From the NCBI RefSeq assembly GCF_030013205.1, contig NZ_CP122648.1: 64,000 nt of DNA. One strand, written 5' to 3'. This stretch comes from Escherichia coli (GTDB taxonomy: Bacteria > Pseudomonadota > Gammaproteobacteria > Enterobacterales > Enterobacteriaceae). Of the stretch, positions 47,375 through 47,425 are shown piece by piece. The stretch's first letter is position 1, and every line of letters starts with the position of its first letter. The translations under genes were made by a program, and so were the position numbers. The notes below the pieces were generated by a model that saw only the letters and a list, made by a program, of their open reading frames with translations, did not search any database and was not told the origin of the DNA.

Positions 47375-47425
47375 TATACTATAGGGGGGTATGTATTGAC
47401 ATATGGCATACCCCCCTATAGTATA
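47375..47425 (+). promoter_or_regulatory. frmR promoter with overlapping palindromic operator (probable FrmR site)
   Basis: Perfect inverted repeat tatactataggggggtatg ... catacccccctatagtata flanking a consensus -35 hexamer ttgaca, ~25 bp upstream of the frmR start. Confidence 0.7.

Follow-up and report, generated by a model that had tools for sequence, protein, structure and literature searches.

What is the role of the long palindrome that lies in front of the frmR gene of Escherichia coli, and how is it placed relative to the promoter of that gene? In the window, that is, the whole 64-kb stretch of E. coli DNA analyzed here, the palindrome lies within the 184 nt that separate yaiO (46493-47266) from a gene of 91 codons (47451-47726), and its end is 24 nt away from the ATG of the latter. 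A first-pass annotation, made from the sequence, had named this gene frmR, which is confirmed by the match of its product to the Pfam family PF02583 (CsoR/RcnR family, E = 3e-23), by the alignment of residues 1-91, all 91 of them, with E. coli FrmR in PDB 5LBM (E = 4e-55), and by RefSeq annotation. Several E. coli chromosomes, such as that of strain K_EC180, match the 601 nt around the palindrome at 100% identity, and yaiO, frmR and frmA are annotated at that position in these records. The locus order is yaiO followed by frmR-frmA-frmB, as in E. coli, and MG1655 carries the same frm locus in reverse orientation. The translation contains the sensory residues Pro2, Cys35 (in EC35RAIL) and His60 (in SH60IRE), which define the formaldehyde-sensing subgroup of the DUF156 regulators, and the operon partners expected for the FrmR subgroup, a glutathione-dependent formaldehyde dehydrogenase and an S-formylglutathione hydrolase, are both present. 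The features of the region are as follows.

47374..47393, no strand assigned: left arm of the inverted repeat, ATATACTATAGGGGGGTATG
47376..47392, no strand assigned: distal FrmR type I site, ATAC-TATAGGGGG-GTAT, which contains the G6 tract and ends 3 bp 5' of the -35 element
47396..47401, plus strand: -35 element TTGACA, in the gap between both sites
47407..47426, no strand assigned: right arm of the inverted repeat, CATACCCCCCTATAGTATAT
47408..47424, no strand assigned: proximal FrmR type I site, ATAC-CCCCCTATA-GTAT, which contains the C6 tract and covers the spacer and the entire -10 element
47417..47422, plus strand: alternative -10 element TATAGT, with a spacer of 15 nt
47419..47424, plus strand: -10 element TAGTAT, with a spacer of 17 nt, wholly within the right arm
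47429..47431, plus strand: predicted transcription start, placed from the position of the -10 element and the published repeat centre at -29
47441..47446, plus strand: Shine-Dalgarno sequence GAGGTG, 4 nt 5' of the frmR ATG
47451..47726, plus strand: frmR, 91 aa, a repressor of the DUF156/CsoR-RcnR family with Pro2, Cys35 and His60
47761..48870, plus strand: frmA, S-(hydroxymethyl)glutathione dehydrogenase, from matches to ADH_N and ADH_zinc_N and from annotation
48962..49795, plus strand: frmB/fghA, S-formylglutathione hydrolase, from a match to Esterase PF00756 and from annotation

Elsewhere in the window, mhpT and tauD (50561-51771 and 40033-40883, respectively) are frameshifted pseudogenes according to the K_EC180 annotation, and the mhpT fragment in the list of open reading frames is truncated, with 258 aa. 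A yaiX-like acetyltransferase gene is an intact open reading frame at 45781-46491, annotated as 45910-46491 in K_EC180, whereas yaiX of MG1655 is interrupted by IS2.

The sequence of 47374-47426 can be written as ATATACTATAGGGGGGTATG-tattgacatatgg-CATACCCCCCTATAGTATAT, for which the repeat finder reports two arms of 20 nt each with 100% complementarity and a loop of 13 nt, and the palindrome is terminated by a T/T pair at 47373/47427. The G6 tract occupies 47384-47389 and the C6 tract 47411-47416. The first-pass annotation had described a perfect 19-bp inverted repeat with G6 and C6 tracts; the perfect repeat and the tracts were indeed found, whereas the arms are 20 nt long, one base more on each outer side. 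Among perfect inverted repeats with loops of no more than 30 nt, it is the longest in the 64-kb window, where the runner-up has arms of 13 nt, and the longest arm in 100 shuffled windows, with dinucleotide composition preserved, was 9-14 nt. The frm palindrome is real and far above chance expectation, so that its earlier description as unusually long and perfect is justified. The second-longest perfect inverted repeat of the window is located at 35477-35506 (TAATGCCCGTCAA / TTGACGGGCATTA, with a 4-nt loop), between the stop of ehaB and the start of iprA on the minus strand and without a T run after it; it could be an operator or a terminator-like hairpin.

The palindrome overlaps a promoter. 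The combination TTGACA-17-TAGTAT scores 10/12 and is the sole sigma-70-like match in 47150-47800, with hexamers separated by a distance within the 16-18 nt of sigma-70 promoters. A divergent promoter on the minus strand that would use the TAGTAT of the left arm was also considered and rejected: by eye, the would-be -35 element ATATGT matches TTGACA at 1/6 positions, and the scan gave no promoter on the minus strand. Each arm contains one copy of the type I motif of the CsoR/RcnR (DUF156) family, ATAC-N9-GTAT, as defined in PMC5146963 and PMC11127321, in the forms ATAC-TATA-GGGGGG-TAT and ATA-CCCCCC-TATA-GTAT, and the promoter in which both lie drives an operon with a gene for a DUF156 regulator, as expected for a type I operator. 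The two arms are the only 2 exact matches to ATAC-N9-GTAT in the 64-kb window. With one mismatch allowed, 15 matches were found in the window compared with 16 expected by chance, so that no extra FrmR sites are indicated there.

The centres of the distal and proximal sites are 32 bp apart. The arms bracket a consensus TTGACA, as had been proposed, which is present at 47396-47401 in the 13-nt gap. However, the operator does not lie exactly over the -35 element, as the first-pass annotation had it, since TTGACA is outside both sites and is the sole promoter element in neither of them. Its reading is therefore partly supported: right in essence, imprecise in geometry, because there are two separate sites and not one operator centred on the -35 element. 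That the operator fits autoregulation of frmRAB by FrmR agrees with the literature, where it has been published as such (PMC5146963).

In fact, the palindrome and its function are already known, and have been used in formaldehyde and methylglyoxal biosensors. The two-site architecture at Pfrm of E. coli K-12 has been described by Denby et al. (Denby, 2016; Sci Rep 6:38879, PMC5146963, Fig. 6a), and this operator is the same element as that of the window, with identical binding sites; the difference in the distance between the site centres, 32 bp as measured here compared with 31 bp in PMC5146963, is attributed to the counting convention. In the same study, EcFrmR bound Pfrm with a Kd of ~220 nM, compared with ~3600 nM for control DNA, formaldehyde abolished the binding and dissociated preformed complexes, and transcription of frmRAB in vitro was blocked by FrmR unless the protein had been treated with formaldehyde. 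Sensing was attributed to a methylene bridge formed between Pro2 and Cys35 of different subunits (PMC5146963). The repeat was placed there with its centre at -29, relative to a transcription start that was termed "predicted", and neither a mapped frmR transcription start nor operator mutations were found in the literature on formaldehyde response and resistance, including a 2026 PLoS Pathogens paper on clinical formaldehyde resistance.

The promoters of E. coli and Salmonella have been aligned by Osman et al. (2016; PMC5016687). The frmRA operator-promoter of Salmonella enterica (Osman et al., 2015, 2016; PMC4528141, PMC5016687) belongs to an orthologous regulator and promoter, and has a C6 tract with a flanking T/A-rich inverted repeat that is needed for binding, which is lost when one of the flanking repeats is mutated. 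In Salmonella, two tetramers bind one compact site on a 33-bp fragment, in contrast to the two separated sites around the -35 element in E. coli. A single-site layout as in Salmonella is also found in Tatumella and most of the more distant homologues. For RcnR of E. coli, a regulator of the same family (DUF156), the operator in the rcnR-rcnA intergenic region consists of two sites with the motif TACT-G6-N-AGTA (Iwig and Chivers, 2009, cited in PMC5146963). These are 19 bp apart on the same helical face (PMC5146963), compared with 32 bp for the FrmR sites here, and the effector is Ni/Co for RcnR and formaldehyde for FrmR.

More recently, the two ATACN9GTAT sites were put into the constitutive promoter J23100, one 5' of the -35 element and the other in the spacer, which resulted in FrmR-dependent repression and 40-fold induction, and shows that the transplanted pair suffices (2024 study; PMC11127321). 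Consequently, most of the experiments proposed in the first-pass annotation have already been published, namely binding with and without formaldehyde (PMC5146963), mutation of the repeat (PMC5016687) and transplantation of the sites (PMC11127321). In the 2024 study, a truncated Pfrm that kept both sites lost repression, and therefore the DNA 5' of the palindrome may also matter, as in the DNA wrapping proposed for regulators of the CsoR/RcnR family (PMC5146963). About 60 nt 5' of the operator, a C tract at 47313-47319 is C7 here and C10 in MG1655. This length-polymorphic tract neighbours the operator of a regulator family thought to read the shape of G/C-tract DNA; the truncated Pfrm of the 2024 study lacked upstream DNA (PMC11127321).

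Based on the above, we consider it highly probable (roughly 0.92) that the palindrome serves as operator for the sigma-70 promoter of frmRAB and comprises two type I sites for the FrmR tetramer. Both sites have the form ATAC-N9-GTAT, one with the G6 and the other with the C6 tract, and mirror each other, with the distal site adjoining the upstream edge of the -35 element and the proximal site covering the spacer and the -10 element TAGTAT. When formaldehyde is absent, FrmR on both sites would block RNA polymerase, and, judging from the gene order, it would repress frmA, frmB and frmR itself. Pro2 and Cys35 of different FrmR subunits are cross-linked by formaldehyde, the DNA-binding face is thereby remodelled, and FrmR is released, so that transcription of the operon can proceed. 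The binding of FrmR, the repression and the release by formaldehyde have been published for the Pfrm fragment of MG1655, and would presumably extend to the window, whose sites are identical in sequence. One tetramer probably occupies each site, RNA polymerase is probably excluded sterically, and the exact transcription start is a predicted one. Structural work on the FrmR-Pfrm complex was described as in progress in PMC5146963, and the FrmR operator literature examined contained neither a footprint nor a structure of it; therefore, the stoichiometry and the contacts at the double site of E. coli are modelled, not measured.

How variable is the element within Escherichia? MG1655, the strain behind the published FrmR-Pfrm experiments (PMC5146963), does not differ from the window in the outer 19 nt of either arm, in the two sites, in the -35 and -10 elements or in the Shine-Dalgarno sequence. 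The inner substitutions are T for C at 47394, G for A at 47405 and C for A at 47407, the last of which makes the perfect arms 20 nt long in the window compared with 19 nt in MG1655. There is also G for A at 47430, near the predicted start. The commonest E. coli allele has arms of 21 nt and a loop of 11 nt, while the exact 81-nt allele of the window occurs in 12 of the 5387 E. coli records; of 5426 E. coli genomes, 5386 have exactly one copy of the element. When six further E. coli genomes, E. albertii and one other Escherichia species are sampled, hardly any variation affects the outer 19 nt of the arms, the TTGA or the Shine-Dalgarno sequence, and most substitutions fall between the arms outside TTGAC and just 3' of the right arm. 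There are a few exceptions. For example, E. coli LH50-c (L083) has a C7 tract, which turns the proximal site into ATAC-N10-GTAT, the -35 element of E. coli MB7671 (L084) is TTGAAA, and E. albertii has a C-to-T change within the C tract.

The comparison was extended by a scan with the FrmR protein, in which one genome was taken per species and 80 loci of 201 hits were used, from Gamma-, Beta- and Alphaproteobacteria. An exact ATAC-N9-GTAT was found no more than 100 nt upstream of the frmR homologue at 65 of the 80 loci, and at 75 of the 80 with one mismatch, while 113,720 nt of downstream sequence, used as control, contained 2 matches. The motif is conserved upstream of orthologous regulators in this set of 80 loci, which is characteristic of type I operators. 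Most loci have a single site, with its centre ~20-49 nt, and typically ~37 nt, upstream of the start codon. This single site corresponds to the proximal (right) arm and usually ends in TATAGTAT, supplying the -10 element. The proximal site is near-universal among the frmR homologues surveyed (80 loci). Since the proximal site over the -10 element is present alone in most of them, the conserved core of repression would be occlusion of the -10 element and not of the -35 element. In most homologues the consensus is A-TACT-N7-AGTA-T, which contains the TACT-N7-AGTA geometry of the RcnR core. The inner half of both Pfrm sites in E. coli is GGTA instead of AGTA, because the G6 tract extends into it.

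The distal site, located 32-35 bp upstream of the proximal one, is limited to some of the closest homologues, largely from Enterobacterales, namely those of Escherichia, Edwardsiella, Providencia, Morganella, Pantoea, Erwinia, Serratia, Aeromonas and Deefgea and a widespread plasmid-borne frmR. Exactly 3 bp separate the distal site from a TTGAC-like -35 element downstream of it in 18 of 19 two-site sequences, which comprise 17 fetched loci, the window and MG1655. The -35 element is conserved as TTGAC, TTGAT or TTGCA at the two-site loci, and the -10 element lies in the proximal site at every one of them. The difference between site spacings of 32 and 34 bp corresponds to TAGTAT versus TATAGT as the -10 element at a spacer of 17 nt. 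The tract between ATAC and GTAT varies by lineage and tends to match between the arms; the agreement is complete in Escherichia, with GGGGGG, and in the plasmid type, with GTGGAG, and elsewhere 5-8 of 9 positions agree. In Erwinia endophytica (L017:1420-1475), the sites flanking the -35 element are direct repeats, ATACTGGGATATAGTAT and ATACTGGTGTATAGTAT. The plasmid-borne frmR, as on an Edwardsiella plasmid (L009:1420-1475; also L011 and L019), encodes a protein that is 90% identical, and its palindrome is perfect with an arm of 18-21 nt and GTGGAG/CTCCAC in place of G6/C6. Close relatives of this frmR region (381 nt) occur on 487 PLSDB plasmids, mostly conjugative ones of Klebsiella and Enterobacter, 223 of them at an identity of at least 99%.

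What is fixed among these loci are the ATAC/GTAT contacts and their position relative to the promoter hexamers, not the pairing potential, and this is the signature of a protein operator and not of a nucleic-acid stem. The distance between the sites varies within 32-35 bp across species, and therefore the loci do not point to a constant helical phase between two bound tetramers. As modest additions to the published description, the comparison shows that the proximal site is the conserved core, that the distal one is accessory, with an offset fixed at 3 bp, and that the tracts of the arms co-vary. It could further be speculated that the distal arm was added in particular lineages to an ancestral operator with one site over the -10 element, that the arms have been kept identical by concerted evolution or selection, and that a cooperative or bridged FrmR complex enclosing the -35 element may be the reason, but we regard this scenario as rather unlikely. 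If true, a bridged complex around the -35 element would be a mode of repression unlike the model of one tetramer per site derived from RcnR.

A related explanation, close to that of the first-pass annotation, is that the palindrome forms a single operator, in which one FrmR tetramer, using both faces, or a higher-order assembly bridges the arms and loops or wraps the 13-nt segment with the -35 element, so that repression is mainly due to sequestration of the latter. Bridging was raised in PMC5146963 because the distance between the Pfrm sites is large next to the 19 bp of rcnR-rcnA. The symmetry of the arms in Escherichia, 19-21 nt, exceeds the 17-nt unit ATAC-N9-GTAT, and the tract co-varies between the arms in separate lineages (GGGGGG/CCCCCC versus GTGGAG/CTCCAC), both of which are consistent with such a complex. 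However, the proximal site stands alone in most frmR homologues, and therefore one site is enough for regulation. The variable spacing of 32-35 bp and the direct repeats of Erwinia endophytica are hard to fit to a rigid bridged complex, and DNA looping over ~32 bp around the small disc formed by four subunits of 91 residues would have to be bent to an extreme degree. One tetramer per site is, moreover, how the related RcnR binds (PMC5146963, PMC5016687). Consequently, we think a single bridged operator improbable.

Could the repeat act through nucleic-acid structure instead, as a DNA cruciform, or as an RNA hairpin or terminator for read-through from yaiO? The single-stranded DNA is predicted to fold into a hairpin of 21 pairs with -19.4 kcal/mol (z = -6.5 compared with shuffled sequences), which speaks for this. 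However, a loop of 13 nt is unfavourable for cruciform extrusion. An intrinsic (Rho-independent) terminator has a GC-rich stem and then a T run, whereas here the stem is followed by TGCGTGCAG without a T run, and the terminator scan gave 0 terminator-like sites. In addition, yaiO has its own GC-rich hairpin at 47275-47296, and the frmR mRNA would lack the repeat because the predicted start is downstream of it. The Rfam scan of 47200-47800 gave only generic hairpin matches (miRNA precursor models) with 26.6 bits compared with a gathering score of 84; such matches, being far below the gathering score, were rejected as meaningless. In other species the arms are imperfect (tract match of 5-8 of 9) or direct, while the ATAC/GTAT bases that would contact the protein are fixed. 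A structural role is thus very improbable. Finally, that the palindrome arose by chance, or is a remnant of the terminal repeats of a mobile element without regulatory role, has as its sole point in favour that mobile elements also contain inverted repeats, and is practically dismissed by the shuffled windows (100 dinucleotide-preserving shuffles, arms of at most 14 nt), by its unchanged placement with respect to frmR in Gamma-, Beta- and Alphaproteobacteria and by the fact that 5386 of 5426 E. coli genomes have it once.

To return to the two-site operator of the frmRAB promoter, the residual value of the comparison is that it tells the conserved proximal half from the accessory distal half. 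The natural operator variants also bear on how FrmR sits on DNA, and those described above, that is, the C7 tract, the -35 element TTGAAA, the sites in direct repeat and the GTGGAG allele of plasmids, could guide the tuning of biosensors.
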